Part shown: piece after piece, positions 59 to 52,868 of the stretch
How positions within the stretch are numbered: the first letter of the stretch is position 1
How the letters are laid out: every line of letters starts with the position of its first letter
From: Candidatus Berkelbacteria bacterium
GTDB taxonomy: Bacteria > Patescibacteriota > UBA1384 > XYA2-FULL-43-10 > CAINNR01
Assembly: GCA_037142675.1 (NCBI GenBank)
Contig: JBAXAF010000005.1
Span: 1 to 57,758, forward strand
DNA length: 57,758 nucleotides
Reading direction: 5' to 3'
Position numbers and translations under genes: made by a program
Notes under the pieces: model-generated
Databases searched by the model: none
Told to the model about the DNA's origin: nothing
What the model saw: the letters and a program-made list of their open reading frames with translations, nothing else

Positions 59-87
59 TTGACAAAAACAAGCATTTACATTATGCT
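59..87 (+). promoter_or_regulatory. sigma70-type promoter of GC-rich cassette 1
   Basis: TTGACA 59-64, 17-nt spacer, TATGCT 82-87, in an AT-rich leader directly upstream of a GC-rich ORF. Confidence 0.45.
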
Positions 88-122
88 TCAGCAAGCATCC
101 CACGAAAGGGGCTACATCAACC

Positions 123-737
123 ATGGATTGGCTACTGTGGAGCGGTTCACCCGTTCCGGCAAAGCAGATATATCTGCTGCGGAAGTTCGAGACTAACGAG
201 ATGGAGGAAGGAAGCCGAGCTTTTGCTCGCGTCTATGAGTACACTGCCGGTCCTGGTCTCGATCTGGCGAAAACGAACGGTGTCATCAGCTTCGTCCACA
301 CCGAGAGCGGAGGCTTCTTCGCTGAGGAGGCCACCAGCGATGACTACGACTTTGTCAACGCGCACGAAAACGAGGGCTGGAAGTTCCTGGCCTTCGACCT
401 GACAGACCCGGCATGGATCGAGAAGATCACCAGCACCTTCGAGGCCATGAAAAGCCGCGGCGGCAAGTGGCAGTATGAACTGTACGAACGGATGACACAG
501 GTCGCCGTCGTCCGTTCGCCCAACCCCGACTACGTGCCGCACGTAGAAGTATCAGTCACTTCCCATGCAGTAGACGCCGACGATTGGAACATCTGTCCGC
601 GGACCGGTCAGCCGCACCGCTTCATCAAACCTACACCCCAAATACCGATCATCGGCCTGCCGTACGGAATCAACGCCAGCTGCATCTGCTCCACCTGTCA
701 TGGCATCTTTTACACCAGCAAACTGTCCGGCAAGTAG
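123..737 (+). CDS. hypothetical protein, GC-rich cassette 1 (204 aa)
   Basis: Open frame with GC3-rich codons, opposite to all neighbours. AAAGGGG lies 11 nt before ATG 123, and ATG 201 is an alternative start. C-terminal Cys/His cluster CICSTCH. No family recognised. Confidence 0.55.
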   Translation: MDWLLWSGSPVPAKQIYLLRKFETNEMEEGSRAFARVYEYTAGPGLDLAKTNGVISFVHTESGGFFAEEATSDDYDFVNAHENEGWKFLAFDLTDPAWIEKITSTFEAMKSRGGKWQYELYERMTQVAVVRSPNPDYVPHVEVSVTSHAVDADDWNICPRTGQPHRFIKPTPQIPIIGLPYGINASCICSTCHGIFYTSKLSGK

Positions 738-762
738 CCGACAGCAAGACACATCAACGCTC

Positions 763-794
763 GCGCCCCGATCTGGGGCCGGGCAATTTTTTTT
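763..794 (+). terminator. intrinsic terminator of cassette 1
   Basis: GCCCC-GATCT-GGGGC hairpin (765-779), then CGGGCAA and a T8 run (787-794). It ends 4 nt before the ligA stop codon. Confidence 0.5.
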
Positions 795-798
795 AGAA

Positions 799-3890
<3,092 letters not shown>

Positions 3891-6955: not shown

Positions 6956-7312
6956 TTAATTTTTCCACAAACCGTGAATATTGCAATAAGCACGGGCGAC
7001 CTTAATATCGCTATTGCAGAATTCTGCTTCTGGTTTCCCGCCAACTTGCAAATTCTTGCGACAAACATCAGCACCTTCCAAAACTTCAATCCACTCTATG
7101 TGATGCTCTGCTTCCATTGGGTGTGGAACTGAGCCAACTAACACTCGCTGATCTTCAACCACTGGTTTGTGTTTTTCCATTCCCTCTTCGCCAGATTTTT
7201 CAACTAATTTTTCCATTGGCTTTCCACAACAAACTAATTCACCATCACTGGCATGAACCAGCTCAACAATGTTGCCACAAACATTACACTTGTAAATTCC
7301 ATTTAATTTCAT
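6956..7312 (-). CDS. dfx: desulfoferrodoxin-type superoxide reductase
   Basis: N-terminal desulforedoxin site CNVCGN..CCGKPM. Centre II ligands EKHKP, HPME..H and CNIHGLW. AAAGGAG SD before ATG 7312 (the ORF track starts 6 codons earlier). Confidence 0.85.
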   Translation of the reverse strand: MKLNGIYKCNVCGNIVELVHASDGELVCCGKPMEKLVEKSGEEGMEKHKPVVEDQRVLVGSVPHPMEAEHHIEWIEVLEGADVCRKNLQVGGKPEAEFCNSDIKVARAYCNIHGLWKN

Positions 7313-7336
7313 GCTTCTCCTTTTGAACATATTATA

Positions 7337-7894
7337 TCAAAATAATTTTCGATAAACATGACAGTATGGGTTACCGCCAGTTTTTTGATAATATTTTTGA
7401 TGATAATCATCGGCCGGCCAAAAATCAGTTGCTTTTTCTACCAGCGTTGCAATTTTCATGCCTTTTTCTTCTAAAATTTTAATCAGTGAAAGTGCGATCT
7501 TTTTTTGTTCATTATTCAAATAAAAAATTCCCGACCGATATTGCGAACCAATATCCGGCCCTTGTCCGCCAACCTGTGTTGGATCATGGGTTTCAAAAAA
7601 AACTTTCGCTAATTGTTCGTATGATACTTTTTCCGGGTCGAAAATCACTTCAATTGATTCGGCATGCCCGGTTTTTCCGCTTGATACCTGCTCGTAGCTC
7701 GGATTTTCAACTTTTCCTCCACAATATCCGACTGTGGTTTTTTCCACGCCACTAACCTGGTCGAAGTAATGTTGCGTACCCCAAAAACAACCGGAAGCAA
7801 AAATCGCTCGCTGGGTTTCATTGTTTTTTTTGTCTTCAACCATAATCTGATTATACTTGACTTGACTATTTTTTGCATCGTCAAATTTAAACAT
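7337..7894 (-). CDS. msrA: peptide methionine-S-sulfoxide reductase MsrA
   Basis: GCFWG active site and GGxGPDxGxQYRS. The start is uncertain: ATG 7894 abuts a terminator and has no SD, and an in-frame ATG at 7843 is an alternative. Confidence 0.85.
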   Translation of the reverse strand: MFKFDDAKNSQVKYNQIMVEDKKNNETQRAIFASGCFWGTQHYFDQVSGVEKTTVGYCGGKVENPSYEQVSSGKTGHAESIEVIFDPEKVSYEQLAKVFFETHDPTQVGGQGPDIGSQYRSGIFYLNNEQKKIALSLIKILEEKGMKIATLVEKATDFWPADDYHQKYYQKTGGNPYCHVYRKLF

Positions 7895-7921
7895 AAAAAA
7901 TGGGAGGCAAACGCACTCCCA
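7895..7921 (-). terminator. intrinsic terminator of GC-rich cassette 2
   Basis: Minus strand TGGGAG-N9-CTCCCA followed by T6. It ends immediately before the msrA ATG. Confidence 0.6.
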
Positions 7922-7927
7922 AACTGT

Positions 7928-8398
7928 TCAATGCTTGTAAAGTCCCTGGCATTGCGGATCATATGGCCCACCGTAGCCCTCAAACTCGAGGGAGGCGCCA
8001 CTCACCAGCGGCAACAGATCCTTCGACTGCCCGATGTAGAAGTCTATCGGGCCACGAGTCTCACCTGGCTTTAGCGCCGGGCGGTCCATGCTTATGCCGA
8101 AGATTGTGGTGGAATAGATGATTTTCTCCCCCTTGAAGAGGCGAAGATGCAAGTTGGCGTAGATGCAGGGTACCTTGCCAATGTTCTTCATGGAGACACG
8201 AAGACCCACATTGGGCCCGTAGTGCCGACGATCAGTAGTGAACAACTTGGCACCTAGGATCGCGATGTGCGGACGTTTGGGGCTGACGGCGGCCGTTTTG
8301 GTCTGGGTTTGAATCTGTACATACCCCAGTCGATCAGGGCCGGCCATGGCGGCCGAAACCAGCATCAGCAACGCCGCAATAATGGTTGATTGCTTCAC
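7928..8398 (-). CDS. hypothetical secreted protein, GC-rich cassette 2 (156 aa)
   Basis: GTG start 9 nt after GAGGAG. Signal-peptide-like N-terminus MKQSTIIAALLMLVSAAMA. GC3-rich codons. No family recognised. Confidence 0.6.
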   Translation of the reverse strand: MKQSTIIAALLMLVSAAMAGPDRLGYVQIQTQTKTAAVSPKRPHIAILGAKLFTTDRRHYGPNVGLRVSMKNIGKVPCIYANLHLRLFKGEKIIYSTTIFGISMDRPALKPGETRGPIDFYIGQSKDLLPLVSGASLEFEGYGGPYDPQCQGLYKH

Positions 8399-8410
8399 AG
8401 CTAATCACTC

Positions 8411-8464
8411 CTCGCAGAAACTGTACTCGAGCTTTACGAATAAGCTCGGGTAGATTCCTGCGAG
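8411..8464 (-). promoter_or_regulatory. bipartite 5'-leader hairpin overlapping the SD of cassette 2
   Basis: Outer stem CTCGCAG/CTGCGAG (8411-8417 with 8458-8464) and inner 9-bp stem (8426-8434 with 8442-8450). The outer arm shares 3 nt with the SD (8408-8413). Confidence 0.4.
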
Positions 8465-8512
8465 AATTTTGTTTATTTAACCATTTTTGCCTGACAAATA
8501 CAAGCTGAGAAC

Positions 8513-8939: not shown

Positions 8940-8968
8940 TTGACTCAATATGTTTTATGTGGTATAGA
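8940..8968 (+). promoter_or_regulatory. sigma70-type promoter of GC-rich cassette 3
   Basis: TTGACT 8940-8945, 17-nt spacer, TGg-TATAGA extended -10 (8960-8968). Confidence 0.5.
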
Positions 8969-8997
8969 TTAGATGTCCCTGAAAGGAGGGATTGGTT

Positions 8998-9804
8998 ATG
9001 TCTGATAAGACAGACGCTGGAAGCAGCCAGCCCTCTTTGGCCATTTTGGTTAGGGTTGGCGGAGAACTTACCGGAACAGAAACTCCTCCGCAAGACGCGG
9101 GCTATGAGCTGATCATCATCGCAGGGGTCGAAGAGAACTGGCTTGTCCATCGTTCAGAAGCAGGCGCTCTCGAGTTCCTGACTAAGGCCCTGGGTGCCGA
9201 TCGCTTCAAGCTAAACCGCGGAGTCTACGAAATTACCGTGCCGTTCGGCATGAAGGGCGCCTGGGTAGGATCCGGCAGTAGAGTCGCCAACTTTCTGGCT
9301 AGTTGTCTAGGAGCCATGCTAGTGATCGGCGAGGATCGCGATTGGATTGTCAAGCGGTGTAGTCGAATCAAGGCTGAACGGCACGAGCAGTTGAGCCTAC
9401 GTAACAGACGGCAACTTGTCTATCACAGTATCATTTCACCCGAGAGCCTACCACACGAGCCTAACTCCCAAGAGATTCACGACACGCTAATCGAATTGAT
9501 GAACCGTGAAACTCCTGATAGAGTTAGGCAGTTTATGGAAGCCTGCGGCTGGTTCTTCTCTGCTGGCACTGTTAGTGGGCTCGGCGTGTTGATTGTCGTC
9601 GAACAGGGCTTGTTCAAGCAATACCAAACCTGCTGCTTTAACCCGGCTCTGCCACCAAGCAAACACGAAGACAGGACGCCGGCAGCGATCACCAAGGCCG
9701 CAAATATCATTGCCCAGACAATGGGCACAGATGAACTGGAGACTCGATGGACCGAGCGACTCGAACAGTTGAAGTGGAGAAAACCCAAAGCGCCGCCCAG
9801 ATAG
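8998..9804 (+). CDS. hypothetical protein, GC-rich cassette 3 (268 aa)
   Basis: AGGAGG 8984-8989 lies 8 nt before ATG 8998 (the ORF track starts at TTG 8992). GC3-rich codons. No family recognised. Confidence 0.6.
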   Translation: MSDKTDAGSSQPSLAILVRVGGELTGTETPPQDAGYELIIIAGVEENWLVHRSEAGALEFLTKALGADRFKLNRGVYEITVPFGMKGAWVGSGSRVANFLASCLGAMLVIGEDRDWIVKRCSRIKAERHEQLSLRNRRQLVYHSIISPESLPHEPNSQEIHDTLIELMNRETPDRVRQFMEACGWFFSAGTVSGLGVLIVVEQGLFKQYQTCCFNPALPPSKHEDRTPAAITKAANIIAQTMGTDELETRWTERLEQLKWRKPKAPPR

Positions 9805-9826
9805 TTGGGGCGGCGCTATTTTATTT
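9790..9826 (+). terminator. intrinsic terminator of cassette 3
   Basis: GCGCCGCCC (9790-9798) pairs with GGGCGGCGC (9808-9816), with the TAG stop in the loop, followed by a T-rich tail. Confidence 0.6.
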
Positions 9827-9839
9827 GGCTCTAAAAAAC

Positions 9840-20613: not shown

Positions 20614-20748
20614 AATTTTTAAATCAAATTTTAAATACTAATATCTAAACTCTAAACAATTTTCAAAATTCAAATGTTTGAATGTTTTAAAATTTTGGTT
20701 TTTGGTCATTTGGATTTGTCTAGAATTTAGAGTTTAGAATTTAGGATT
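20614..20748. repeat. about 130-bp palindromic intergenic repeat, family 1, copy a
   Basis: Left arm ...ATATCTAAACTCTAAACAATTTTCAAAATTCAAATG and right arm CATTTGGATTTGTCTAGAATTTAGAGTTTAGAAT. It fills the whole gpmI-ftsE gap. Confidence 0.85.
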
Positions 20749-22320
20749 TTATATTAACTTACTTATATCAATTCCACTCATTTCTCCAGGCTTCGGCAAT
20801 CCCATCAACTGTAGTACTGTCGGTGATACATCCGCCAGAATCCCAGTAGCGGGAGAGCTGGAGTACTCCAGTAATGTTTCATGATTAAAGTCTGTCCCCG
20901 ACTGCGGCGTAAACGGCTTGGTTGCTAAATCACAAACAACAAATGGAACCGGGCTTCCGGTATGTTCTTTATTTACTTCACCGTTGGCCGGATTGATCAT
21001 AATTTCACAATTTCCGTGGTCGGCAGTAATAATTACTGTGTAACCCTTGGCTGAAGCAGCCGACATCACCGGCCCCAAATTCTGGTCGATAGATTCCGCA
21101 GCCTTAATCGATGCTTCTAAGTTCCCGGTGTGACCAACCATGTCGCCATTGGCGAAATTTACCAAAACAAAATCTTGCTGTTTATTTATTGCCTCAACTA
21201 CCTTATCTTTTATTAGTCCTGCTGACATTTCCGGCACTGTGTCATAACTCTCAACCCTTTGCGACGGGACAAGAACTTGTTCCTCATGATCATGTGTTTT
21301 TTCTTCGCCACCATTAAAAAAGTATGTAACGTGGGCATATTTTTCAGTTTCGGCAATGTGGCTCTGTTTCATGGCCGATGCTTCAATAATGTCAGCGGCG
21401 ACATTCGTCATATCAAGCGGTAAAAATACTGCCGGGGCTTTTTGCCCATCAAAATATTTTGTCATCGTGACCATGGCCAAGTTATTAACTTTTTGACGCT
21501 GAAATTCAGAAAAACTTTCAGTTTCAAATGTCCCTAGAACCTGGCGCATTCGATCGGCGCGAAAGTTAAATAATACAACTCCGTCACCCGGGCGGATTAA
21601 TCCTTCTTTATTTATTAAGCAGGCACCAATTTTTTCATCATCCGCACCAGCCCGATAATTGGCCTCAATTGCGTCGGCAGCGCTGTTGTAGAAGTCTCCC
21701 TGCCCCAAAACCCAGAGATTGTAAGCTTTTTCCACTCGCTCAAAATGTTTGTCGCGATCCATAGCGTAAAATCGCCCGATAATTGTCGCAATTTTACCAA
21801 CCCCAATTTTTTCAGCCTGTTCTTCAATAAGTTTAATGTCTTCCTTGGCAACTTGTGGAGCTGTGTCGCGACCATCAGTAATCATGTGAATAAAAACCTT
21901 GTCAACATTTTTGTCACTAGCGAACTGTAGTAAAGCATAAAGATGTTTCAAGCTTGAGTGAACGCTACCAGCCGAACACAGACCGATTAAATGCAGCGCA
22001 CTACCGCCGCTATTAACATGATCAGCAATTTTATTTAAATTTTCATTCTTAAACAGGCTGCCGTTTTCAATCGCCAAATCAATCCGCGGCAAGTTTTCCC
22101 AAACTACCCGGCCAGATCCTAAATTCAAGTGGCCGACTTCAGAATTACCAGATTCACCCGGAGTAATACCAACATCAATGCCAGACGCCGATAATGAAGT
22201 CTTTGGGTAAGCACCATAAATCCAGTCCAAATTCGGAGTTTTGGCCAAATAGGTAGCATTACCTTCTTTTAAAGGTGAAAGCCCCCAGCCGTCTAAAATT
22301 ACAAGTAGAACTTTTTTCAA
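20749..22320 (-). CDS. gpmI: 2,3-bisphosphoglycerate-independent phosphoglycerate mutase
   Basis: LVILDGWG, NSEVGHLNLG, ITADHGN. TTG start after GGGAGGGG. Confidence 0.95.
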   Translation of the reverse strand: MKKVLLVILDGWGLSPLKEGNATYLAKTPNLDWIYGAYPKTSLSASGIDVGITPGESGNSEVGHLNLGSGRVVWENLPRIDLAIENGSLFKNENLNKIADHVNSGGSALHLIGLCSAGSVHSSLKHLYALLQFASDKNVDKVFIHMITDGRDTAPQVAKEDIKLIEEQAEKIGVGKIATIIGRFYAMDRDKHFERVEKAYNLWVLGQGDFYNSAADAIEANYRAGADDEKIGACLINKEGLIRPGDGVVLFNFRADRMRQVLGTFETESFSEFQRQKVNNLAMVTMTKYFDGQKAPAVFLPLDMTNVAADIIEASAMKQSHIAETEKYAHVTYFFNGGEEKTHDHEEQVLVPSQRVESYDTVPEMSAGLIKDKVVEAINKQQDFVLVNFANGDMVGHTGNLEASIKAAESIDQNLGPVMSAASAKGYTVIITADHGNCEIMINPANGEVNKEHTGSPVPFVVCDLATKPFTPQSGTDFNHETLLEYSSSPATGILADVSPTVLQLMGLPKPGEMSGIDISKLI

Positions 22321-22881: not shown

Positions 22882-23523
22882 TTATTTTCCACAACAATCA
22901 ATGTATTTTTTATCTGATCCACAAGGACATTTACTATTCAGGTCAAAATCATTCATTTCAAATTGCTTAATGTCATAAACAAATCGAAGCCCGTTCCTAA
23001 TTGCCTTATCGATATTAAGAATTCCGTCCAAATGGTCCAGTTCATGCTGAATAACTCGCGATTCCTTATCATTACCATCAATAATTAGCTCCTTGCCAGT
23101 TTCATCTTGATAACTTATCGAAACGAACTTCGGCCTGACCACCGTCGCTGCTAAATTGCCCATGCTGACACAAAGCTCTTCAGCAATAGTTAATTCGTTA
23201 GAGCGCTTGGTGATCCTTGGGTTAACTAAAATCATCACTTTATCTCTAACAAAAACCGCAACAAACCTTTTGAGCACCCCAATCTGCGGGGCCGCCAAAC
23301 CTCTGCCGAAACCTGTTTTCTCTCGATATCCCAAAAATATTTCTTTTAATTTTTTGATGTCTTTTTGTGTTTTTGAATCAGTAATAACGACATTTTTGCA
23401 TTTTTTTCTAAGATCATCCGAACCAAGATAACTAATATCTGGAAAGTTTTTAATTGTCTTTTTCCAAACATTAAGAAACTTATTTAGATCAGCCGGCACA
23501 AGTTTTGATTTATTATTTCCCAC
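22882..23523 (-). CDS. def: peptide deformylase with C-terminal SEC-C zinc-binding motif
   Basis: Deformylase motifs GRGLAAPQIG, EELCVS (EGCLS-like) and QHELDHLDG. The tail CPCGSDKKYIDCCGK resembles the SecA C-terminus. The start is uncertain: GTG 23523 overlaps the secA end, and GTG 23499 is an alternative. Confidence 0.75.
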   Translation of the reverse strand: MGNNKSKLVPADLNKFLNVWKKTIKNFPDISYLGSDDLRKKCKNVVITDSKTQKDIKKLKEIFLGYREKTGFGRGLAAPQIGVLKRFVAVFVRDKVMILVNPRITKRSNELTIAEELCVSMGNLAATVVRPKFVSISYQDETGKELIIDGNDKESRVIQHELDHLDGILNIDKAIRNGLRFVYDIKQFEMNDFDLNSKCPCGSDKKYIDCCGK

Positions 23524-26251
23524 AGCACTTTTTGTACTTTTTGCCAGAACCGCATGGGCATGGGTCGTTGCGGCCGACTTTTTCAGCGGATTTGATAGTC
23601 TGCCCAACACCTGTGGAATTATCCATTCGGTCAAAAACGGTTTTGCCCTTTTGGCGAATTGAAGTTGTAACACCAAAATCGTTGTCCGTTGTCCGTTGTC
23701 CGTTGTCAGAATTTGTTTCGGATAACTGATCACCGGAAACGGGAAACTCGCCTATTGTATCGGCGTCTGGTGCCTGATATTCCAATGGACGAGATTCTAC
23801 AACTGTTGCTGGTTGCTGAACTTGAACTTCGACATGAAAGATAGTTTTAATAACACTAGATTCAATTGCTCCGAGCAAATCCTGGAACAAGCGATACGCT
23901 TCTTTTTTATAAGCAACCAGCGGATCAGTTTGAGCGTAGCCCTGTAGGCCGATTCCAGTTCGCAACTCTTCCATTGTCGTTAAATGTTCAACCCAAAGCA
24001 TATCAATAGTCCGTAAATAAACTGCTTGTTCAACCTGACGCATCATTTCCGGTCCAAATTTTTTCTCTTTTTCCGAATATAATTTTTCAATTTCTTTTTT
24101 TACTGCTTCCGCATTTAATTCGCGCGGAGAAATGGTAAAAATCGCTTCAATTTCCGTTTTAATTTTCTCCGGCTCAGCTACCAAAGCAGCAAATATTGCT
24201 TCAGCTTCCTTGTTAGCAATTTCTAGAATTTCATTTTTGAGTGCGTCATTTTTGTCATTTGAACTTTGATCTTCATTTGAATTTTTAGCTTTGATATTTG
24301 AGCTTTCTAATATCTTCCTTCTTTTACCATAAACAAACTTGCGATGCGAATTCATTACATCATCATATTCAACCAAGTGTTTACGAGTATCAAAGTTGTG
24401 GCCCTCAACCTTTTTCTGCGCGCCCTCTATTGATTTGGAAATCATACTGTTTTCAATTGGTACATCCTCCGGCAAACCAAGCCGTTCCATAATAGATTTC
24501 AAACGATCACCGCCAAATATTCGCATTAGGTCATCATCCATCGAAACATAGAATTGAGAAGATCCCGGATCACCCTGGCGACCTGCACGGCCTCGAAGCT
24601 GGTTATCTATTCGTCGTGATTCATGTCGCTCTGTGCCTATCACATGTAAACCACCAACTTCAGCCACGCCCTCGCCTAATTTAATGTCAGTTCCACGACC
24701 AGCCATGTTGGTGGCAACTGTGACTGCCCCTAACTGGCCCGCCTTAATGATAATCTTTGCTTCACGCTCATGATTTTTAGCATTCAACATTTCAAACTTT
24801 ATCCCAGCTTTTTTCAAAAACTTTGATAAATATTCATTTTTCTCAACCGAAACTGTGCCAACCAAAACTGGCTGTCCGGCCTCTTGGCGTTCTTTAATAT
24901 CAGCAACAACAGCGTCAATTTTCCCAGCAAAAGTTTTGTAAATTTTGTCACCAGCGTCATGACGGACCATGGGCCGATTTGTTGGAATTTCTGTTACATC
25001 GAGCTTATAAATTTTATAAAATTCTTCCGCTTCAGTTGCCGCAGTTCCCGTCATACCAGCAAGTTTGTGATACAAGCGGAATAAATTCTGGAAAGAAATT
25101 GTTGCCATTGTTTGCGATTCACGATTAACAAAAACATTTTCTTTGGCTTCAATTGCTTGATGCAAACCTTCGGAATAACGACGGCCTTGCATTAAGCGGC
25201 CAGTAAATTCATCAACAATAATAATTTCACCGTCTTTTACGACATAATCTTTATTTTTCTTGAATATAGCGTGAGCTTTCAGAGCTTCTTCTAAGTGGTG
25301 AACTAGCTCAATAGTTTCAGCGGCATAAACATTTGCAATCCCCAGCATACCTTCCATTTTTTTAATACCCGAGTCGGTAATCATTACAGCCCGGTCTTTT
25401 TCGTCTACAGTGTAATCTTCTTCAATTTTCAAACGCGGAACCAAGGCCGCAAATTTTTGATAAAGCGATGCCGATTCCTCTGCTGGCGCTGATATGATGA
25501 GTGGAGTTCTGGCTTCATCAATTAAAATTGAGTCAACTTCATCGACAATAGCAAAGTGAAGTTCGCGCTGCGAGCAATGTTGAACACTTGGCGCCATGTT
25601 GTCGCGCAAATAATCAAACCCAAATTCATTGTTGGTACCGTATGTAATGTCACAATCGTAGGCTTCTTTTCGTGAACAGGGAACCAAGTTGGATCCATCG
25701 GCTTCTGAATAGTGTTTATAATCGACTTTCTTTTCGAATTTATATGAAATTTGCTGATTTTGAATAATACCAACAGAAAGGCCAAGAAAATCGTGAATTT
25801 CACCCATTCCCTCACCATGACTTTTGGAAAGATAATCGTTAACAGTAACCAAGTGAACTCCGCGGCCAGTTAGCGCATTTAAATACAATGGCAGTGTTGC
25901 CACCAAAGTTTTTCCTTCACCAGTTTTCATTTCCGCAATTTGCCCAGAGTGGAGAACTGCACCACCAATTAGCTGAACATCGAAGTGCCGCTCACCCCAA
26001 ACCCGGCGCGATGCTTCACGAACCACAGCAAACGCTTCTGCTTTGATTTCTTCCATGATTCTGGCTTCTTCGGATAACTGACCACCGGCAACTGACAACT
26101 GTTTTTTGAATTTCTCGGTATATTCCTTGAGCTCTTTGTCGGATTTCTTCTTTAGTTCATCTTCGATACCATTTGCATCAACTAAAAACTTCTTGTAGCG
26201 GTTAACTACCTTCTGTGACGAGTCGGTAAAAAATTTGGAAAACAAAGACAT
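23513..26251 (-). CDS. secA: preprotein translocase ATPase SecA
   Basis: MKTGEGKTLV, DEVDSILIDEARTPLIIS, TNMAGRGTDIKLG, C-terminal CPCGSGKKYKKCCGK. Confidence 0.95.
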   Translation of the reverse strand: MSLFSKFFTDSSQKVVNRYKKFLVDANGIEDELKKKSDKELKEYTEKFKKQLSVAGGQLSEEARIMEEIKAEAFAVVREASRRVWGERHFDVQLIGGAVLHSGQIAEMKTGEGKTLVATLPLYLNALTGRGVHLVTVNDYLSKSHGEGMGEIHDFLGLSVGIIQNQQISYKFEKKVDYKHYSEADGSNLVPCSRKEAYDCDITYGTNNEFGFDYLRDNMAPSVQHCSQRELHFAIVDEVDSILIDEARTPLIISAPAEESASLYQKFAALVPRLKIEEDYTVDEKDRAVMITDSGIKKMEGMLGIANVYAAETIELVHHLEEALKAHAIFKKNKDYVVKDGEIIIVDEFTGRLMQGRRYSEGLHQAIEAKENVFVNRESQTMATISFQNLFRLYHKLAGMTGTAATEAEEFYKIYKLDVTEIPTNRPMVRHDAGDKIYKTFAGKIDAVVADIKERQEAGQPVLVGTVSVEKNEYLSKFLKKAGIKFEMLNAKNHEREAKIIIKAGQLGAVTVATNMAGRGTDIKLGEGVAEVGGLHVIGTERHESRRIDNQLRGRAGRQGDPGSSQFYVSMDDDLMRIFGGDRLKSIMERLGLPEDVPIENSMISKSIEGAQKKVEGHNFDTRKHLVEYDDVMNSHRKFVYGKRRKILESSNIKAKNSNEDQSSNDKNDALKNEILEIANKEAEAIFAALVAEPEKIKTEIEAIFTISPRELNAEAVKKEIEKLYSEKEKKFGPEMMRQVEQAVYLRTIDMLWVEHLTTMEELRTGIGLQGYAQTDPLVAYKKEAYRLFQDLLGAIESSVIKTIFHVEVQVQQPATVVESRPLEYQAPDADTIGEFPVSGDQLSETNSDNGQRTTDNDFGVTTSIRQKGKTVFDRMDNSTGVGQTIKSAEKVGRNDPCPCGSGKKYKKCCGK
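23680..23707. repeat. perfect 4x heptanucleotide tandem repeat inside the secA tail
   Basis: CGTTGTC x4 on the plus strand (GACAACG x4 on the coding strand), encoding DNGQRTTDN. Confidence 0.95.
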
Positions 26252-26401
26252 AATATTGAAATTAAAACACGGATCATTTACACGAATAAGCTCGGATAAA
26301 TCACATCCGTGAAAATCCGTGTGGTAAATCCGTGTACGAATATCCTTTTAATGCTTTTACTTTAGCACTTCGCGCCCTTTTTCTCAATGCTCTCACAGAC
26401 A

Positions 26402-26430
26402 TTGACATATTTTCAATTTTATGATAGAAT
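26402..26430 (+). promoter_or_regulatory. promoter of GC-rich cassette 4, unit 1
   Basis: TTGACA 26402-26407, 17-nt spacer, TGa-TAGAAT extended -10 ending at 26430. Confidence 0.6.
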
Positions 26431-26468
26431 TTAGCCATTCTGTCCACACTTTGATTGGGAGGGCTACC

Positions 26469-27023
26469 ATGCCACCGAAAATTGGCGTGCCTGAGCTGAC
26501 CTTGGAGCAAATCGTCCGCGAGTACAACAGATTCAGCCTCCATGATGGCTGGATCGCCAACCCCCAGCCAAACACCACACCAGAGGGACACCACGGCATT
26601 AGGGTCATTGGTGGCTCCTGGTCGTATACCGATGCGTGGGTTGATGGGCGTGATAGCCCGATCATCTTTGATGAGGACGTATTCATGGGGCAGACGATTC
26701 TCTCATGCGGCAAATGGATGGCTATGTACATGACATACCATGGCCGCATGGACGCGATCGGGACCGAGATGGTCAAACTCGCGCTGAGATACCAGTACGA
26801 ACTCGGCATTTTCAACGGAGGTCGCGGTCCGGCTACGTTCGAAGACGGCGACCTCCGCTACATGTACGAGCTGACCACCGATCACCCCAACAAGGACATG
26901 GGAGTCGTCGGTTTCTCTGGCAGGGAGGCGGTTTACGACAAAGATGACCACTGTCATGCACAGTGTTTCATCCAAGGAGGGGTCCTGATCCCCGGCTTCG
27001 CTGACTTTCAGCCGACGCGCTAG
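26469..27023 (+). CDS. hypothetical protein, cassette 4 gene A (184 aa; possibly DUF5680-like)
   Basis: GGGAGGG SD 5 nt before ATG 26469. GC3-rich codons. WMAMYMTYHGRM, RGPATFEDGDLRYMYE and C-terminal IQGGVL recall DUF5680 proteins; this is from memory and unverified. Confidence 0.6.
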   Translation: MPPKIGVPELTLEQIVREYNRFSLHDGWIANPQPNTTPEGHHGIRVIGGSWSYTDAWVDGRDSPIIFDEDVFMGQTILSCGKWMAMYMTYHGRMDAIGTEMVKLALRYQYELGIFNGGRGPATFEDGDLRYMYELTTDHPNKDMGVVGFSGREAVYDKDDHCHAQCFIQGGVLIPGFADFQPTR

Positions 27024-27036
27024 CGCGATCGCCACA

Positions 27037-27076
27037 GAACCACAACGGGCAGCCCCGCAGGGCCACCCGTTTTTTT
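27037..27076 (+). terminator. terminator / 40-nt direct repeat, copy 1
   Basis: GAACCACAACGGGCAGCCCCGCAGGGCCACCCGTTTTTTT: a GC hairpin plus T7. Near-identical to 28002-28040. Confidence 0.65.
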
Positions 27077-27100
27077 ATTCAAAAATGTAACTGCAAAGAG

Positions 27101-27129
27101 TTGATCAAAGAGCTCAAAAGTGCTAGAAT
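27101..27129 (+). promoter_or_regulatory. promoter of GC-rich cassette 4, unit 2
   Basis: TTGATC 27101-27106, 17-nt spacer, TGc-TAGAAT extended -10 ending at 27129. Confidence 0.6.
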
Positions 27130-27165
27130 AATCTCGCGACAATCTCCTGAGAGGAAAACAAAACA

Positions 27166-27786
27166 GTGAGCATTCAAAGATTCTTCTGCCCGTTTCCGGC
27201 TCAACAGATCGCTTTCGTCCACGAACAGGTCGAGATCGCGCTCAATGACGTTTTGGTGCTGATCGACGACCCGTCTCGCTCCGGCGTCTACTGGTCACTT
27301 TCCAGTGGCACCGGCCGCATCTACTCAGTAATGATGGCGGGAGAGCCGCCAGACGAGAAGGTCCTGCGGTACAACGGCTTCGCCGTTGAGAAACCGACCC
27401 GTCTCGGACAGCACCCAGAGCACCTGACCAGCGACGAGAGCGCTGATCCAGATCCTGAGGCTGGTAAGTTCGGAGGAGCTTTCCGTCTCCATTGGCCGCC
27501 GATCACCGAAGAGGACCACGAGAAGAACATGCGCGATCGCGCGCAAGCCATCATCGGCGAGGCTCAGAGCTCCGTCTTCACGGACCGGCCCGTGATCATG
27601 GCCGTTTCCGGCTTGTCCCTCGCTCACCACGACAGTGCCGTCGGAATGCTAGCGCTGAAGCGGCTAGGGGTCATTACCGAAGACGACATCGGCACGCTTA
27701 TCAGGCGCACCGGCAACGACTTCTGGCCAATTGTGTACGACGAGTACACCACCATCATGGACCACCCAGAACTTTTCAGGCGCTAA
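27166..27786 (+). CDS. hypothetical protein, cassette 4 gene B (206 aa)
   Basis: GAGAGGA SD 10 nt before GTG 27166. GC3-rich codons. No family recognised. Confidence 0.6.
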   Translation: MSIQRFFCPFPAQQIAFVHEQVEIALNDVLVLIDDPSRSGVYWSLSSGTGRIYSVMMAGEPPDEKVLRYNGFAVEKPTRLGQHPEHLTSDESADPDPEAGKFGGAFRLHWPPITEEDHEKNMRDRAQAIIGEAQSSVFTDRPVIMAVSGLSLAHHDSAVGMLALKRLGVITEDDIGTLIRRTGNDFWPIVYDEYTTIMDHPELFRR

Positions 27787-27812
27787 CCCCAGTAAGACAG
27801 GAACTATCAATC

Positions 27813-27998
27813 ATGTGGAACCCAATTGCGGCGATTGCCGCGTGGAACCGAAGAACCGCGGCGATGGAACACATCGAACGAGAGAACCAAGCTGATGGTC
27901 AGCTGGCATGGCTAGCCGTAATCGCTGTGGTAAGCTTTTTCATCTGGCTGATGTTCTTCGGCGGCATGGAGCAGCTGGGGCACGTGCCGATACCATGA
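27813..27998 (+). CDS. small membrane protein, cassette 4 gene C (61 aa)
   Basis: ATG 27813 lies 26 nt after the gene B stop, with a weak AGGA SD. One TM helix LAWLAVIAVVSFFIWLMFFGG. This is the last third of the long ORF-track frame 27492..27998. Confidence 0.45.
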   Translation: MWNPIAAIAAWNRRTAAMEHIERENQADGQLAWLAVIAVVSFFIWLMFFGGMEQLGHVPIP

Positions 27999-28001
27999 AC
28001 C

Positions 28002-28040
28002 GAACCACAACGGGCGGCCCCGCAGGGCCACCCGTTTTTT
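28002..28040 (+). terminator. terminator / 40-nt direct repeat, copy 2
   Basis: GAACCACAACGGGCGGCCCCGCAGGGCCACCCGTTTTTT, with one mismatch to copy 1. Confidence 0.65.
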
Positions 28041-28048
28041 AATTGATG

Positions 28049-28108
28049 AGATCCTGAAACAAGTTCAGGATGACAAAACTATTTGTGGATCCCCGACTAC
28101 TCGGGGAT
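28049..28108. repeat. two CPR-type short palindromic repeats
   Basis: ATCCTGAA-ACAAG-TTCAGGAT (28051-28071) and ATCCCCGA-CTAC-TCGGGGAT (28089-28108), just downstream of the hpf stop. Confidence 0.8.
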
Positions 28109-28115
28109 GACTTCG

Positions 28116-28493
28116 TCATTTTTTCTTTCGGAATCTGCCCAAAATCTCGTAAACCTTATCAAGCCTTCCGCCGCCTGTGTGAGCTTTTTGGATCTCTTTT
28201 TTGTGTTGATCGCGAACTTGCCGATCAACTGAACTCAGAGCCAAGGCGAAAGCCTTCATAATATTATTTCTTTTTTCTTCAACATGAATGTTGTAATGCT
28301 CGGAAGTAACATCAATTTTTACCGACTGCGTTACACCATTTTTATTTGGACCGGAATCATCGATTAAGTGAACTTCGACTGCTACCGGACTTTCATGTTT
28401 CAAATATTTTTTTAATCTGCCAATTTTTTTCTCAATGTCAGACTTTTGTCGGGCGGTGATGATGACATCCTTCGTCACGACGTTAATTTGCAC
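28116..28493 (-). CDS. hpf: ribosome hibernation/RaiA-HPF family protein
   Basis: Short HPF-like size and pattern (ITARQKSDIEKKIGRLKKY..., NIMKAFALAL). AAGGAGG SD before the GTG start. Confidence 0.75.
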   Translation of the reverse strand: MQINVVTKDVIITARQKSDIEKKIGRLKKYLKHESPVAVEVHLIDDSGPNKNGVTQSVKIDVTSEHYNIHVEEKRNNIMKAFALALSSVDRQVRDQHKKEIQKAHTGGGRLDKVYEILGRFRKKK

Positions 28494-28505
28494 TTTAGCC
28501 TCCTT

Positions 28506-28640
28506 GTTTTAAAAAATAAATTCTAATATCTAATTTCTAAACTCTAAACAATTTTCAAAATTCCAATGCTCCAATGTTTTAGACTTTATAAAATTTTATC
28601 ATTTGGATTTATCTAGAATTTAGAGTTTAGGATTTTCGTT
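28506..28640. repeat. palindromic intergenic repeat, family 1, copy b
   Basis: Same arms as copy a. The right arm supplies the last codons and the TAA stop of serS. Confidence 0.85.
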
Positions 28641-29892
28641 TAATTTCCTTAAACGACAGCCACTTGTGCAGCGCCTCTGGAATTTTTATGCTGCCATTTT
28701 TTTGCTGCCCGTTTTCCATGATAGCAATAAGCATCCGTCCAATGGCAATAGCTGTTCCGTTTAATGTGTGAAGTGGGGCGACCTTTCCGTCTTTGTCACG
28801 AAAACGAATATTTAGGCGGCGAGCTTGAAAATCTGTGCAGTTTGAGCAAGAATGAGTTTCGCGGTATTGATCTTGCCCTGGCATCCAAGTTTCTACGTCA
28901 TATTTCTTGACGGCAGGTGAGCCAAGATCGCCGGCACAAATATCGATAATTTGGTAAGGAAGTCCAAGACCAGAAACAATTTTTTCTTCCAGTGACACTA
29001 AGTATTCATGTTCTTTTTCTGATTTGTCTGGAGTTGTGAACGAAAACATTTCAACTTTATCAAATTGATGCGCTCGCAAAATTCCTCGAACATCTTTGCC
29101 GTGGCTGCCAGCTTCGCGGCGGAAACAACTTGAAAACCCAGCATATCGCAGTGGTAGCAATTTTTCATCAATAATTTCTCCGGTATGATACCCGGCCAAT
29201 GGTTGCTCTGAAGTACCTGCCAAGAAAAGATCGTCCTGAGTTTTATAAATTTCGTCTTCACCTGCTGGCAAATATCCAGCGCCAGTCATTGCTTCGCGAT
29301 TGAGTAGCACTGGTACGATCATTGGCACAAACTTTTCTGCTGTTAGAATTTCCAGCGCATATTGAACTAAGGCAAATTCCAACTGCACTAATTCGTTTTT
29401 CAGGAAATAGAAACGCGATCCAGAGATTTTTCCAGCTCGTTCAATATCTATCAGGTCTAGTTTTTCACCAAGTTCAACGTGGTCCAGTGGCTTAAAAGCG
29501 AATTTTGGTATCTCTCCGACTGTGCGATTAACTTTATTTTCCTTATCTGACGCGCCATCAATAACATCTGCAAGCGGCGGATTTGGAATTCGCAGCATAA
29601 TTTCGGCAAATTCGGCTTGTGCTTTATCAGCTTCTGGTTTTAATGCTTTAACTTTGGCCGAAGAATTTGAAGCTTGATTTATAGCATCAATTTTTTGCTG
29701 ACCATGCAAATTGGCAATGTCTTTTGATGATTTGTTTAGTTCACTTTGCGCCCGTTCTAATTCAACTAAAACTCGGCGGCGATTTCGGTCAATTAAAACT
29801 ACTTCATCGATCAATGCCGGATCAGCACCCTTTCTGGCAATAGCTTTTTTTACAACCTCTGGTTCTTTTCGGATAATTTCTATATCTAACAT
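28627..29892 (-). CDS. serS: seryl-tRNA synthetase
   Basis: N-terminal coiled coil, class II motifs FRREAGS and NGTAIAIGRML, and TSEQPL. Confidence 0.95.
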   Translation of the reverse strand: MLDIEIIRKEPEVVKKAIARKGADPALIDEVVLIDRNRRRVLVELERAQSELNKSSKDIANLHGQQKIDAINQASNSSAKVKALKPEADKAQAEFAEIMLRIPNPPLADVIDGASDKENKVNRTVGEIPKFAFKPLDHVELGEKLDLIDIERAGKISGSRFYFLKNELVQLEFALVQYALEILTAEKFVPMIVPVLLNREAMTGAGYLPAGEDEIYKTQDDLFLAGTSEQPLAGYHTGEIIDEKLLPLRYAGFSSCFRREAGSHGKDVRGILRAHQFDKVEMFSFTTPDKSEKEHEYLVSLEEKIVSGLGLPYQIIDICAGDLGSPAVKKYDVETWMPGQDQYRETHSCSNCTDFQARRLNIRFRDKDGKVAPLHTLNGTAIAIGRMLIAIMENGQQKNGSIKIPEALHKWLSFKEIKRKS

Positions 29893-29899
29893 GTGACTC

Positions 29900-30035
29900 C
29901 TTATTTCAAAGCTCTAAATTCTAATATCTAAACTCTAAACAATATCAAAATTCAAATGTTCCAATGTTTAAAAATTTTGGGAATTTGATCATTTGGATTT
30001 GTCTAGGATTTAGAATTTAATGTTTAGGATTTTCT
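29900..30035. repeat. palindromic intergenic repeat, family 1, copy c
   Basis: Same arms as copy a. The right arm overlaps the last codons and the stop of lysS. Confidence 0.85.
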
Positions 30036-31393: not shown

Positions 31394-31559
31394 AATTTGC
31401 TCCGCAAATTCATAATAATGATGGTATCACACTGATCATTTGCACAGATTCGACACAGATCTTTTTCATCTGTGATTCATGTGTGTTAGATATATGTGTG
31501 CTTTCTTCAATTGATCTCCTTATTTGATACTAGCAAAAAACTCACGAGAATTAAAGTTA

Positions 31560-31568
31560 TGATATAAT
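31560..31568 (+). promoter_or_regulatory. extended -10 element of cassette 5, unit 1
   Basis: TGa-TATAAT. There is no good -35 (ACTCAC at the 17-nt position). Confidence 0.45.
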
Positions 31569-31588
31569 TTCATCAACGAGGTGATCAT

Positions 31589-31780
31589 ATGACTAACGAT
31601 CTGGATAACATTCAGTCACGCGTCCGAGAAAATGGTCCGGACTTCATAACTCGCCACCTACGAGCAATTAGGCCACCTGACCTACGATCGCCTGCGCAGA
31701 TTGCACTGGAGACCGAATACCTCTACGGCCTTGCGTGGATGCAAGGCAAACCAGATTGCATGTTCGCCGTTTCTGACTGA
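31589..31780 (+). CDS. hypothetical small protein, cassette 5 gene A (63 aa)
   Basis: GAGGTGA SD 4 nt before the ATG. GC-rich codons. No family recognised. Confidence 0.45.
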   Translation: MTNDLDNIQSRVRENGPDFITRHLRAIRPPDLRSPAQIALETEYLYGLAWMQGKPDCMFAVSD

Positions 31781-31809
31781 CCGCCCAGCCCATCGCTGGC
31801 GGTTTTTTT
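31781..31809 (+). terminator. terminator of cassette 5, unit 1
   Basis: CCGCCCAGC-CCATC-GCTGGCGG followed by T7, starting right after the TGA stop. Confidence 0.65.
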
Positions 31810-31810
31810 A

Positions 31811-31839
31811 TTGAAAATACCGCAATAATTTGATAGAAT
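31811..31839 (+). promoter_or_regulatory. promoter of cassette 5, unit 2
   Basis: TTGAAA 31811-31816, 17-nt spacer, TGa-TAGAAT extended -10 ending at 31839. Confidence 0.6.
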
Positions 31840-31860
31840 TTCTGGCAGAGGTGATTAGCT

Positions 31861-32124
31861 TTGCGAAACTTACTATCTCGACTAATTGATCTATTTCGTC
31901 GCAAACCAAAACGGAAGCTTTCCGGACTCGAAGAGTTAGCGGAAATTCAGAAGCGAACACTTGAAGAATTCAAACGCATCTCTGACGGCAGAACAGTGTG
32001 GGACGAGCCAATGGACCGTCGTCGTTGTTCCGAACTGGGATATGACTACATCCCGTCTGCTGGTGCCAGCGAAACAGGGGTCCTTTCCGGCCACCGCCGT
32101 CATCGTCGTCCGCCGCCCAGCTAG
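31861..32124 (+). CDS. hypothetical small basic protein, cassette 5 gene B (87 aa)
   Basis: GAGGTGA SD 6 nt before TTG 31861. The leader GTGATTAGCT is shared with cassette 2. No family recognised. Confidence 0.45.
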   Translation: MRNLLSRLIDLFRRKPKRKLSGLEELAEIQKRTLEEFKRISDGRTVWDEPMDRRRCSELGYDYIPSAGASETGVLSGHRRHRRPPPS

Positions 32125-32142
32125 CCGCTGGCGGTTTTTTTT
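32113..32142 (+). terminator. terminator of cassette 5, unit 2
   Basis: CCGCCCAGC-TAGCC-GCTGGCGG followed by T8. The arms are identical to 31781-31802, and the T-run overlaps the dinB stop codon (32141-32143). Confidence 0.65.
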
Positions 32143-36683: not shown

Positions 36684-37475
36684 TTAAACTCCAGACACAA
36701 CAAAAAGGTATTCTATCTTGGAAAAATCGACCGGCGAAGCAACCTCTACTGTCTTAAAAATATCAGACTTAACTGAGACTTCGCTTCCAGTGGTGCCGAC
36801 ATAAATACCTTTTGGCAATTTACCACCAAGTCCCGAGGTAATAACATTCTCAGATGGAGCAATGATTGTGTCCAGAGGGATACTTCCGAGTTTCATGCCG
36901 GAAATTCCACCCGACAAGACTCCGGTTGTTCGCGAATTTTGCAGCATGACTTGCACGATAGAATCTTTGCTGGTAATTAACATCACTCGAGAAGAGTCAT
37001 CTGAAACAAAATCAATTTTACCAACCAGAGCACCAAGAGAAACCACTGCTTGCCCCGGCAAGACACCGTCCCGAGAGCCTTTATCAATCATTAGCGTACC
37101 AAAATAATTGCTTGGATCAAGCCCTATTACGTCGGCCAAAACCATGGTCATTTCTGGATGCGCATTTTTATAGTCAAGTTGAGATTTTAAGCTCTTATTT
37201 TCGGCTGAAATTTCAGTTAGCTTCGCGCCATCAACCTTTAATTGAACCAAATCATTTGCCAATTGTTGATTGTCTCTTCGTAGACTTCCAATTTCAAAGA
37301 TCATCGAGAAAAAATCGCGGGTGCTATAACCAAAATTAACCAGCGGCTTGGAGATTGGGCGCGATACTTTTCGAATAAAGCCAGCCGAATAGCGACTCAC
37401 TGGCGACGGAACAACAAAAAAAGCAACCAAGATAATAATTACGATAAACCAAGTTAAAAGACCACGTTTTTTCAT
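36684..37475 (-). CDS. mreC: rod-shape protein MreC
   Basis: N-terminal anchor, a coiled coil (LRRDNQQLANDLVQLK) and C-terminal beta-barrel domains. Confidence 0.85.
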   Translation of the reverse strand: MKKRGLLTWFIVIIILVAFFVVPSPVSRYSAGFIRKVSRPISKPLVNFGYSTRDFFSMIFEIGSLRRDNQQLANDLVQLKVDGAKLTEISAENKSLKSQLDYKNAHPEMTMVLADVIGLDPSNYFGTLMIDKGSRDGVLPGQAVVSLGALVGKIDFVSDDSSRVMLITSKDSIVQVMLQNSRTTGVLSGGISGMKLGSIPLDTIIAPSENVITSGLGGKLPKGIYVGTTGSEVSVKSDIFKTVEVASPVDFSKIEYLFVVSGV

Positions 37476-37628
37476 AAAACTCTAAATTCTAATATCTAAA
37501 CTCTAAACAATTTTCAAAATTTCCACGCAGGACCTAACCGGCAAATGTTCGAATGTTTTAAAATTTTGGATTTTAGTCATTTGGATTTATTTAGGATTTA
37601 AAATTTAGTGCTTAGAATTTTTTTTAGT
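37476..37628. repeat. palindromic intergenic repeat, family 1, copy d (with central GC-rich insert)
   Basis: Same arms as copy a. The centre carries an extra CCACGCAGGACCTAACCGGC. Confidence 0.85.
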
Positions 37629-52727: not shown

Positions 52728-52868
52728 AATTATAAAATTCTAAACTCAAATATCAAAATTCTAAACAATTTTAAAATTCAAATGTTCAAATATTTTAAAC
52801 TTTTGAGATTTTGATAATTTGGTCATTTAGATTTATTTAGGATTTAGAGTTTAGAAATTAGAGTTTGA
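52728..52868. repeat. palindromic intergenic repeat, family 1, copy e
   Basis: Same architecture as copy a, with diverged arms (AAATTCTAAACTCAAATATC ... GATTTAGAGTTTAGAAATTAGAG). Confidence 0.8.

Follow-up and report, generated by a model that had tools for sequence, protein, structure and literature searches.

What is a GC-rich block, read on the opposite strand, doing between two housekeeping genes of a Candidatus Berkelbacteria chromosome? The stretch of DNA that we analyzed, here called the window, is the 57,758-nucleotide contig JBAXAF010000005.1 of assembly GCA_037142675.1. The block is about 1.7 kb long and lies on the plus strand between the start of secA (26251) and the stop of hpf (28116). 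Nearly all long open reading frames (ORFs) of the window are on the minus strand, versus the plus strand for those of the block. An initial annotation, made from the sequence alone, had placed two promoters, three ORFs (A, B, and C) and two terminators here, and all of them lie where it had put them (Table 1). We consider it likely that a hypervariable accessory-gene slot lies here, a moron-like hotspot of horizontal gene transfer in a Berkelbacteria chromosome, and that the block is its present content, specific to this species.

Homologues of the hpf product at 79 to 88% identity are labeled Candidatus Berkelbacteria or Patescibacteria by their sources. By this comparison, the host is a Candidatus Berkelbacteria bacterium of the Candidate Phyla Radiation (CPR, or Patescibacteria). 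CPR genomes are tiny and streamlined, and how they gain and trade accessory genes is poorly understood. In the arrangement that we propose, the frame of the slot would be owned by the host. One promoter (P1) would fire divergently from the secA promoter, and a terminator (T) would stand convergent against hpf. Cargo between P1 and T would be transcribed independently, in the manner of a moron, from the strand that does not encode the housekeeping genes. It would be exchangeable, with related species holding unrelated GC-rich orphan genes in the same slot. In the window, two units would be stacked, unit 1 being P1-ORF A-T1 and unit 2 being P2-ORF B-ORF C-T2, and both exchange and stacking would take place over between-species timescales.

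Table 1. Features of the secA-hpf region and three further GC-rich islands of the window (SD, Shine-Dalgarno sequence; TM, transmembrane)
Feature	Position	Strand	Description
Further GC-rich island	60-790		Promoter-SD-ORF-terminator; 204-aa product, Pfam orphan
Further GC-rich island	7884-8474	-	Promoter-SD-ORF-terminator; 156-aa product with signal peptide, Pfam orphan
Further GC-rich island	8940-9830		Promoter-SD-ORF-terminator; 268-aa product, Pfam orphan
secA	23513-26251	-	Flank of the slot
secA promoter	26359-26387	-	TTGAGA-17-TG-TAAAGT; from promoter scan; back-to-back with P1
P1	26402-26430	+	TTGACA-17-TG-TAGAAT; 11/12 consensus match; predicted to drive unit 1
Unit 1 5' leader	26431-26468	+	SD GGGAGGG at 26457-26463
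ORF A	26469-27023	+	184 aa; divergent DUF5680-superfamily protein, invariant GGRGP motif
T1	27034-27079	+	Predicted terminator ending unit 1; duplicated copy of T; hairpin plus seven T
P2	27101-27129	+	TTGATC-17-TG-TAGAAT; predicted unit 2 promoter, extended -10; SD GAGAGGA at 27149-27155
ORF B	27166-27786	+	206 aa; GTG start; undescribed ~160-aa family, predicted DUF336/GlcG-like fold
ORF C	27813-27998	+	61 aa; orphan; one predicted TM helix; 26 nt after ORF B
T2	27999-28044	+	Predicted terminator ending unit 2; slot terminator T at the ancestral position adjoining hpf
Two short hairpins	28045-28115		GATCC…GGATGAC type; 71 nt between T2 and hpf stop; not cargo
hpf	28116-28493	-	Flank of the slot

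Related species keep the frame of the slot and differ in its contents

We collected the secA-hpf regions of relatives from the contexts of hpf homologues, from the closest relative of ORF A, and from a metagenome scan with the core of the terminator. Two of these loci, L100 and L095, form a tight clade with the window, in which Hpf is 98 to 99%, SerS 96 to 97%, and SecA 93 to 95% identical. At the DNA level the three are only ~80 to 88% identical, and therefore they represent separate species rather than strains. L092, L089/L090, L096/L097, L102, and L104 are progressively more distant from the window. A scan of GTDB species genomes with SecA gave only SecA proteins of ~50% identity from many phyla; the peptide patterns were too generic, and absence of the clade from that collection is not implied.

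The upstream border of the slot is conserved. The -35 region of the secA promoter reads CTTTTTCTCAATGC on the plus strand, and it does not vary among six related species (alignment A4). About 9 bases beyond it lies the ATTGACA of P1, followed by the -10 box. Both P1 elements are kept in L100, L089, L095, L092, and L104; P1 and the secA -35 region are conserved in six lineages. The credibility of the two putative promoters comes mainly from conservation of this kind, and we found no counterpart of P2 in any relative. A leader motif of unit 1, TAGCCATTCTGTC, is common to the window and the A-type allele of L089. We also observed TAGCCAYTCT just 3' of the -10 box in unit 1 (26431-26450), in L089 (3424-3445), and in the leader of an unrelated cargo in the lysS-dinB spacer of L092. 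These units may thus have a transcription-start or leader element in common.

The downstream border is T, a hairpin that begins with GAACCACAACGRGC and is followed by a U-run. T adjoins hpf in eight lineages (the window, L100, L095, L092, L090, L096, L102, and L104). Its stem arms have been remodeled between lineages, yet all variants pair (-15 to -24 kcal/mol, z scores of -3 to -5). P1 and T are 90 to 98% identical to those of the closest relatives, compared with ~80 to 88% for the flanking genes.

What lies between these borders changes from one lineage to another. The window and L100 do not differ up to and including the -10 box; from roughly the transcription start they diverge, and the alignment resumes exactly at T. 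The window holds ORF A and then ORFs B and C, whereas L100 holds an unrelated ORF of ~160 aa, apparently frameshifted. L095 carries an 88-aa protein with two TM segments plus a 33-aa hydrophobic peptide, and L092 carries a homologue of the L095 two-TM protein. L089/L090 hold an ORF A homologue (A'), then an intact element of the IS200 (insertion sequence) type, and then a separate 56-aa zinc-ribbon-like unit. L096/L097 hold another ORF A homologue (A''), and L104 holds a 91-aa ORF. In sum, at least five unrelated cargo types occur between P1 and T, with syntenic secA and hpf flanks in all relatives. L100 and L095, the closest relatives (~85% DNA identity), carry none of ORFs A, B, and C, and no cargo is shared among the window, L100, and L095. 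Moreover, cargo type and host relatedness are discordant: the A type is in the window, L089, and L096, and the two-TM type is in L095 and L092. Ten other cargo proteins, scanned against Pfam in search of a feature that might unite them, all proved to be orphans.

Three of these slots contain further observations. In L100, the slot ORF (1445-1930) is split into two frames of 72 aa and ~100 aa that join into one plausible protein of ~160 aa; the break means that the gene is a frameshifted pseudogene or that the assembly contains an error. L096 has an element with a 307-aa transposase between P1 and its ORF A homologue (7130-8250). The IS200/IS605-type element of L089 (4100-4650) and L090 (690-1240) encodes an intact Y1 transposase, is flanked by hairpins, and lies directly after T. 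This is the same junction at which unit 2 begins in the window, and therefore the junction after T appears permissive for insertions. It may be favored by elements that target hairpins; no such enzyme is encoded in the window.

The block differs in composition from its host and recurs in independent assemblies

The G+C content is 55.5% in the block versus 41.9% in the window. We calculated the G+C content of third codon positions (GC3) in the annotated frames and obtained 0.71 for ORF A, 0.74 for ORF B, and 0.66 for ORF C. The mean of 49 host genes is 0.367 (standard deviation, 0.038; maximum, 0.46), which places the three ORFs 8 to 10 standard deviations above it; their G+C content at second positions is ~0.42. 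These values agree with the foreign-looking composition that the initial annotation had reported, and they give all three ORFs a clear coding signature. In the block ORFs, two-fold codons strongly prefer C (AAC, 0.86; TAC, 0.78; TTC, 0.74), and the G-ending codons CTG, GCG, GAG, and CAG are also enriched.

Such a contrast could arise if a GC-rich fragment had been joined into an AT-rich contig by misassembly or contamination, and the composition does shift abruptly at the block. However, the block and its context, junctions included, are 100% identical in eight contigs from different samples, produced by independent assemblers (ENA, JGI, and Logan assemblies). Therefore, the block is not an assembly artifact or chimera. 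The promoters and leaders within it are AT-rich and of host type, with TAGAAT -10 boxes, and P1 and T are kept in relatives, both of which also speak against a chimera. We give that explanation practically no credence. All eight contigs being identical, there were no population single-nucleotide polymorphisms for a dN/dS test.

The neighbors of the block are secA, def, hpf, serS, lysS, dinB, and greA. Pfam annotations of the genes up to 10 kb away in both directions identified no integrase, transposase, or recombinase. Transposases of the relatives, including the IS200 TnpA of L090, had no match anywhere in the window. An Rfam scan over the region gave one match at chance level and nothing else.

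Unit 2 is flanked by two copies of the slot terminator

The initial annotation had noted that unit 2 is bracketed by direct repeats. A 39-nt core occurs exactly twice in the window, where none is expected in shuffled sequences, and if three mismatches are allowed, the two copies are 46 nt long (T1 and T2 in Table 1). Each copy is predicted to form a strong hairpin with a U-run after it (-16.6 and -21.3 kcal/mol; z scores of -3.2 and -4.3), so the division into two promoter-to-terminator units, P1/T1 and P2/T2, also stands. In the window and in the metagenome scan, T was found only at the secA-hpf locus. It is therefore not a common host terminator, as would have spoken against a bracketed unit. 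The scan gave eight matches, four of which were chance matches within GC-rich genomes.

On the hpf-sense strand, T has a continuous 12-bp stem, and in L100, L095, and L092 it is the sole hairpin after hpf. T is probably bidirectional, shared by the slot and hpf, and would also end hpf transcription. This would explain the conserved unpaired GAACCACAAC, with which the hpf transcript would then end.

Unit 2 was added in this lineage only, and a duplicate of T flanks it. In T1, the stem is of the ancestral A variant, as in L100 and L095, and is accompanied by TTTTTTTATT. T2 has the G stem variant and an L100-like 3' end, TTTTTTAATT, after which comes a hairpin, gatgagatcc…ggatgaca, that is shared with L096. 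Such a mosaic would be expected if incoming P2-B-C-T DNA had recombined with the chromosome by one crossover in T. Unit 2 probably arrived by such recombination within T, which would have left T duplicated on both sides. For turnover between species, homologous recombination anchored in secA/P1 and T/hpf would be the simplest explanation, and rare illegitimate insertions would have created new cargo before its exchange.

Hairpins of the GATCC…GGATGAC type next to hpf are absent from L100 and L095. One of them, AGATCCTGAAnCAAGTTCAGGATGACA, recurs at unrelated sites in the window (2395-2421 and 28049-28075), in L092 (4173-4216), and in L096 (829-862). From this distribution, they look like a dispersed element comparable to repetitive extragenic palindromes or miniature inverted-repeat transposable elements.

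ORF A is a divergent DUF5680-superfamily protein

The initial annotation had noted a resemblance of ORF A to DUF5680-type proteins. By itself, ORF A matches DUF5680 (PF18931) with only 15.8 bits (E = 0.019), below the Pfam gathering threshold of 25, although the match spans profile positions 6 to 103 of 104. A phmmer search of 1.84 billion representative proteins found P0004, which is 42% identical to ORF A, and about a dozen weaker relatives. Several relatives do exceed the DUF5680 threshold: P0012 (49 bits), P0019 and P0055 (30 bits), and P0042. When the A clade of the secA-hpf locus was compared with threshold-passing DUF5680 members by hhalign, the probability was 99.6% (E = 4.2e-24, 152 columns). 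Therefore, ORF A belongs to the DUF5680 superfamily as a divergent member, and the initial annotation was essentially right; the homology holds, and what does not hold is a direct match of ORF A to the family profile. ORF A aligns over the full domain and keeps the GGRGP core but differs from DUF5680 in an N-terminal extension of ~60 residues, which it shares with its relatives.

We found nothing in the literature on the function of DUF5680, the only mention being in the machine-learning feature list of one paper. The AlphaFold2 model of ORF A has a mean predicted local distance difference test score (pLDDT) of 87.8. We rejected any fold assignment for it, since searches of the PDB and of viral structures gave only weak matches, UTRA/chorismate-lyase-like and miscellaneous, with template modeling (TM) scores of 0.34 or less. 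A word-indexed search of 5.8 billion proteins retrieved only ORF A and ORF B themselves, and exhaustive HMMER searches were needed to find their relatives. Sequence searches of the PDB with ORF A, ORF B, and a profile of the ORF B family found nothing.

Homologues of ORF A occupy the same locus in L089/L090 (42% identity to ORF A) and L097 (34%). These locus homologues are 34 to 42% identical to one another, while the SecA proteins are 79 to 87% identical. Between the window and L089, DNA homology runs from secA through the first ~85 nt of ORF A at a background identity of 72%. Because of these positional homologues in two distant relatives and the continuous DNA homology from secA, ORF A is probably an old, fast-evolving occupant of the slot. 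The GC3 of the A genes is 0.71 to 0.79 in all three lineages. L112 suggested a conserved neighborhood of DUF5680 genes and hpf, but two further contexts did not bear this out, and DUF5680 genes have no common neighborhood.

ORF B belongs to an undescribed family, and ORF C is an orphan

In the same phmmer search, ORF B aligned over its full length with ~50 distant proteins of ~160 aa. It keeps the invariant residues of this family and has an extra insertion of ~30 aa (residues ~112 to 142), which was modeled at low confidence. No member belongs to a Pfam family, and none of the 45 that were scanned matched the DUF336/GlcG family (PF03928) at E values up to 10. This work defines the ORF B family, and it also adds divergent CPR members to DUF5680.

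The model of ORF B has a pLDDT of 86 and a predicted TM score of 0.82. All of the top 20 Foldseek matches in the PDB were of the DUF336 type, among them 2a2l, 5cx7, 9jth, 3fpw, 4nkp, 6bws, and 4clc, which include ORFY, the PduO C-terminal domain (PduO-C) with haem, NahX, HbpS, EfgA, and Ybr137w. Their probabilities were 0.9 to 1.0, but the E values were ~2.5e-3 and the TM scores only 0.49 to 0.58 on the target. Thus, the family of DUF336, GlcG, HbpS, PduO-C, and EfgA (PF03928) is the only consistent structural match of ORF B. ORF B differs from it in the ~30-aa insertion and in a C-terminal helical extension, and it has no sequence-profile similarity to it; a search of PDB sequences with the family profile found no DUF336 chain. 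ORF B contains the motifs GGAxR and SFSGLxExxDEA, comparable to GG…/…GVSG…D/E, which we take to be the DUF336 pattern. For ORF B, the model suggests a soluble protein whose fold is DUF336/GlcG-like, of the type that binds or senses small ligands; the ligand is not assignable.

ORF C had no homologue among the 1.84 billion representative proteins except itself. It has one strong hydrophobic segment (19-residue Kyte-Doolittle mean of 2.57 from residue 31), in keeping with the TM helix that the initial annotation had seen. Its in-frame GC3, this segment, and its tight spacing after ORF B argue that it is a gene, and it is probably cotranscribed with ORF B.

The three genes do not recur as a trio elsewhere

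The initial annotation had read ORFs A, B, and C as a compact three-gene module and had let the claim depend on the trio recurring elsewhere. The trio co-occurs nowhere else, so the claim fails by its own measure. The genes are adjacent, on the same strand, and of the same deviant composition, and pairs of a small membrane protein and a soluble partner are common in abortive-infection and toxin systems. These points would suit one cofunctional module of two soluble proteins and a membrane protein, acquired as a block for defense, conflict, or host interaction. However, the block is divided by an internal terminator and has two promoters, and ORF A homologues are at the secA-hpf locus without B or C in both L089/L090 and L096/L097. 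B-family genes elsewhere stand alone among housekeeping or unrelated genes with no A gene beside them. ORF C has no homologue, and no C-like small membrane ORF lies downstream of the other B-family genes that we examined. In the contexts examined, A-family and B-family genes never occur together. Nor did we obtain any support for the proposed accessory conflict or defense function: PADLOC, NCBIfam, and PHROGs gave no significant match for A, B, or C, and phage (sequenced phages included), plasmid, and viral-contig searches with A and B found nothing. A single module is thus highly improbable, and on these comparative grounds A, B, and C are probably independent accessory genes, not one machine.

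A- and B-family genes with elevated G+C content also occur in other AT-rich, CPR-like genomes (L111, 4051-4539; L112, 1344-1856; L091, 1339-1830). The L091 gene has a G+C content of 0.54 versus 0.32 for its neighbors, and the L112 gene has a GC3 of 0.39 versus 0.17 to 0.25. Therefore, the composition contrast is a property of the A and B families and not of this genome alone. It hints at a shared, compositionally distinct pool of accessory genes.

Alternative explanations

Several points weigh against an exchangeable slot. No relative carries unit 2, whose insertion is an event that we infer, and no relative shows an allele with only ORF A and a single T in an otherwise identical background. 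T1 and T2 have only three differences, which makes the crossover reading weak. The relatives are different species (~80 to 88% nucleotide identity), and turnover may be slow and consist of independent insertions and deletions instead of allele exchange. The function of P1, P2, and T is read from consensus matches, folding, and conservation, and the DUF336-like assignment of ORF B is at the level of the fold, with neither the PDB-profile search nor Pfam supporting it. Finally, long residence of ORF A with an unameliorated GC3 of 0.71 to 0.79 is hard to square with a simple foreign origin. In another explanation, the cargo genes would be native, long-resident CPR genes whose GC-rich codons are under selection, for example for high expression or messenger RNA properties, and species differences would reflect rapid divergence and loss. 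The position of ORF A is kept where secA is only 72% identical at the DNA level, A- and B-family genes are GC-elevated relative to their neighbors in several other genomes, and the preference for C-ending two-fold codons is strong. However, the cargo of L100, L095/L092, and L104 is unrelated to ORF A and of different length and topology. The enrichment of G-ending codons indicates a general GC3 shift and not classic translational selection, and A-type and TM-type cargo are distributed at odds with the relatedness of the hosts. We therefore regard native origin as unlikely.

A mobile cassette would explain the direct repeats in another way. Unit 2, or slot cargo in general, would be moved by a site-specific or hairpin-recognizing recombinase whose site is the T hairpin plus the unpaired GAACCACAAC, by analogy with integron attC cassettes or IS200/IS605-type single-strand transposition. 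The 46-nt repeats flank unit 2, the unpaired 5' flank is kept besides the hairpin, and the IS200-type Y1 element of L089/L090 sits exactly at the post-T junction where unit 2 begins in the window. The second island described below likewise has tandem units with duplicated terminators, and the T1/T2 mosaic fits a single crossover in T under this explanation also. Set against this, the 10 kb on either side contain no integrase or transposase, and the transposases of relatives match nothing in the window. In contrast to integron cassettes, unit 2 has a promoter of its own, T is at one locus only and not dispersed as a mobile end would be, and terminators of the other islands are unrelated to it in sequence. 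GAACCACAAC can be read just as well as the tail that a bidirectional terminator would leave on hpf transcripts. A cassette of this kind is thus decidedly unlikely. A bolder version, which we hold to be very unlikely, is that CPR genomes use fixed "expression docks" of a promoter and a bidirectional terminator, in which GC-rich orphan ORFs from a hidden CPR mobile pool are swapped with near-ORF precision through recognition of the hairpin and GAACCACAAC, in an integron-like manner without a known integrase. If so, long-resident cargo would never ameliorate, since it would be continually reseeded.

The slot compared with known systems

In lambdoid phages, work by Hendrix and Juhala reportedly described morons as independent promoter-ORF-terminator units inserted between conserved genes. 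The slot units resemble morons in having their own sigma-70-type promoter and intrinsic terminator, in lying between two genes that, in relatives, either adjoin each other directly or enclose other contents, and in their strongly deviant composition and small products without assigned function. They are autonomous units in this sense, but they do not reside in a phage or prophage. The slot is in a cellular housekeeping region of a CPR chromosome, with no phage genes nearby and no phage or viral relatives found, and the promoter and terminator of unit 1 are conserved in the host and were not brought with the gene.

Chromosomal hotspots of horizontal transfer and replacement flexible islets lie between core genes and are maintained by homologous recombination in their flanks. 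The slot has the features that mark such a hotspot, conserved syntenic flanks with contents that differ among relatives. The secA and hpf flanks are syntenic around at least five cargo types, a second site is alike, and no integrase or transposase is needed in the window. It differs in being very small, with one to three genes, and in being framed exactly by a conserved promoter and a probably bidirectional terminator. All of its cargo is GC-rich and is read from the opposite strand, and the genome around it is a reduced one of the CPR.

With integron cassettes, the slot shares tandem small-ORF units, each ending in a similar hairpin, in a highly variable array. However, it has no recombinase of that kind, with no IntI, attI, or Pc nearby. 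Each unit has a promoter of its own, its hairpin is that of a canonical intrinsic terminator with a U-run, and the repeat is locus specific. An IS200/IS605 derivative, similar to palindrome-associated transposable elements or repetitive extragenic palindromes, is not indicated either, as the window has no Y1 match and T is at one locus only.

We found nothing in the literature on such islands in Berkelbacteria or CPR. The slot is thus of a recognizable kind (hotspots, replacement islets, and morons) in an unusually tidy form in a CPR genome, and it involves no new molecular machine. The pattern would be one of fixed housekeeping genes whose spacers act as small, ready-wired expression sites. 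If it is general, a search for promoter-terminator frames would list the flexible gene pool of uncultivated CPR from metagenomes, and slot cargo would provide candidate genes for the interaction of episymbionts with their hosts.

A second locus and other islands of the window

The lysS-dinB spacer is a second site of this type. In the window (31547-32140), it holds two tandem units encoding 63 aa and 87 aa with near-identical terminators, CCGCCCAGC…GCTGGCGGTTTTTTT. The spacer is empty in L095, the closest of the long relatives, where it is 53 nt long. L092 and L097 share a terminator, GCCGACCTGACGTYGTCCGTCAGGTTTTTT, and differ in cargo. As judged from these alignments, the lysS-dinB locus behaves like the secA-hpf slot. 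Its two products in the window are Pfam orphans, as are those of three further GC-rich islands with a promoter, SD, ORF, and terminator (Table 1). The terminators of these other islands are unrelated in sequence to T.

Two other kinds of repeat were observed. AT-rich repeats of ~100 to 135 nt, 62 to 89% identical to reference copies (families D1 to D3), occur at 20615-20750, 28500-28643, 29898-30033, 37467-37621, and 52724-52867. They lie directly upstream of the minus-strand host genes ftsE, hpf, serS, mreC, and one other, and -10 boxes of the TAGAAT type are present in them. These genes may have a promoter/leader module in common, or the repeats may be an intergenic element that has dispersed. 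Two exact copies of the 14-mer ACGAATAAGCTCGG were found, at 8436-8449 and 26282-26295. Each copy is within a different 7-bp inverted repeat (CTCGCAG…CTGCGAG and CACGGAT…ATCCGTG), and both are in minus-strand 5' leaders of secretion-related genes, namely, secA and the signal-peptide ORF at 7928-8398. The 14-mer could be a shared leader structure, with weak statistics (7 of 100 shuffles reach two matches at two or fewer mismatches).

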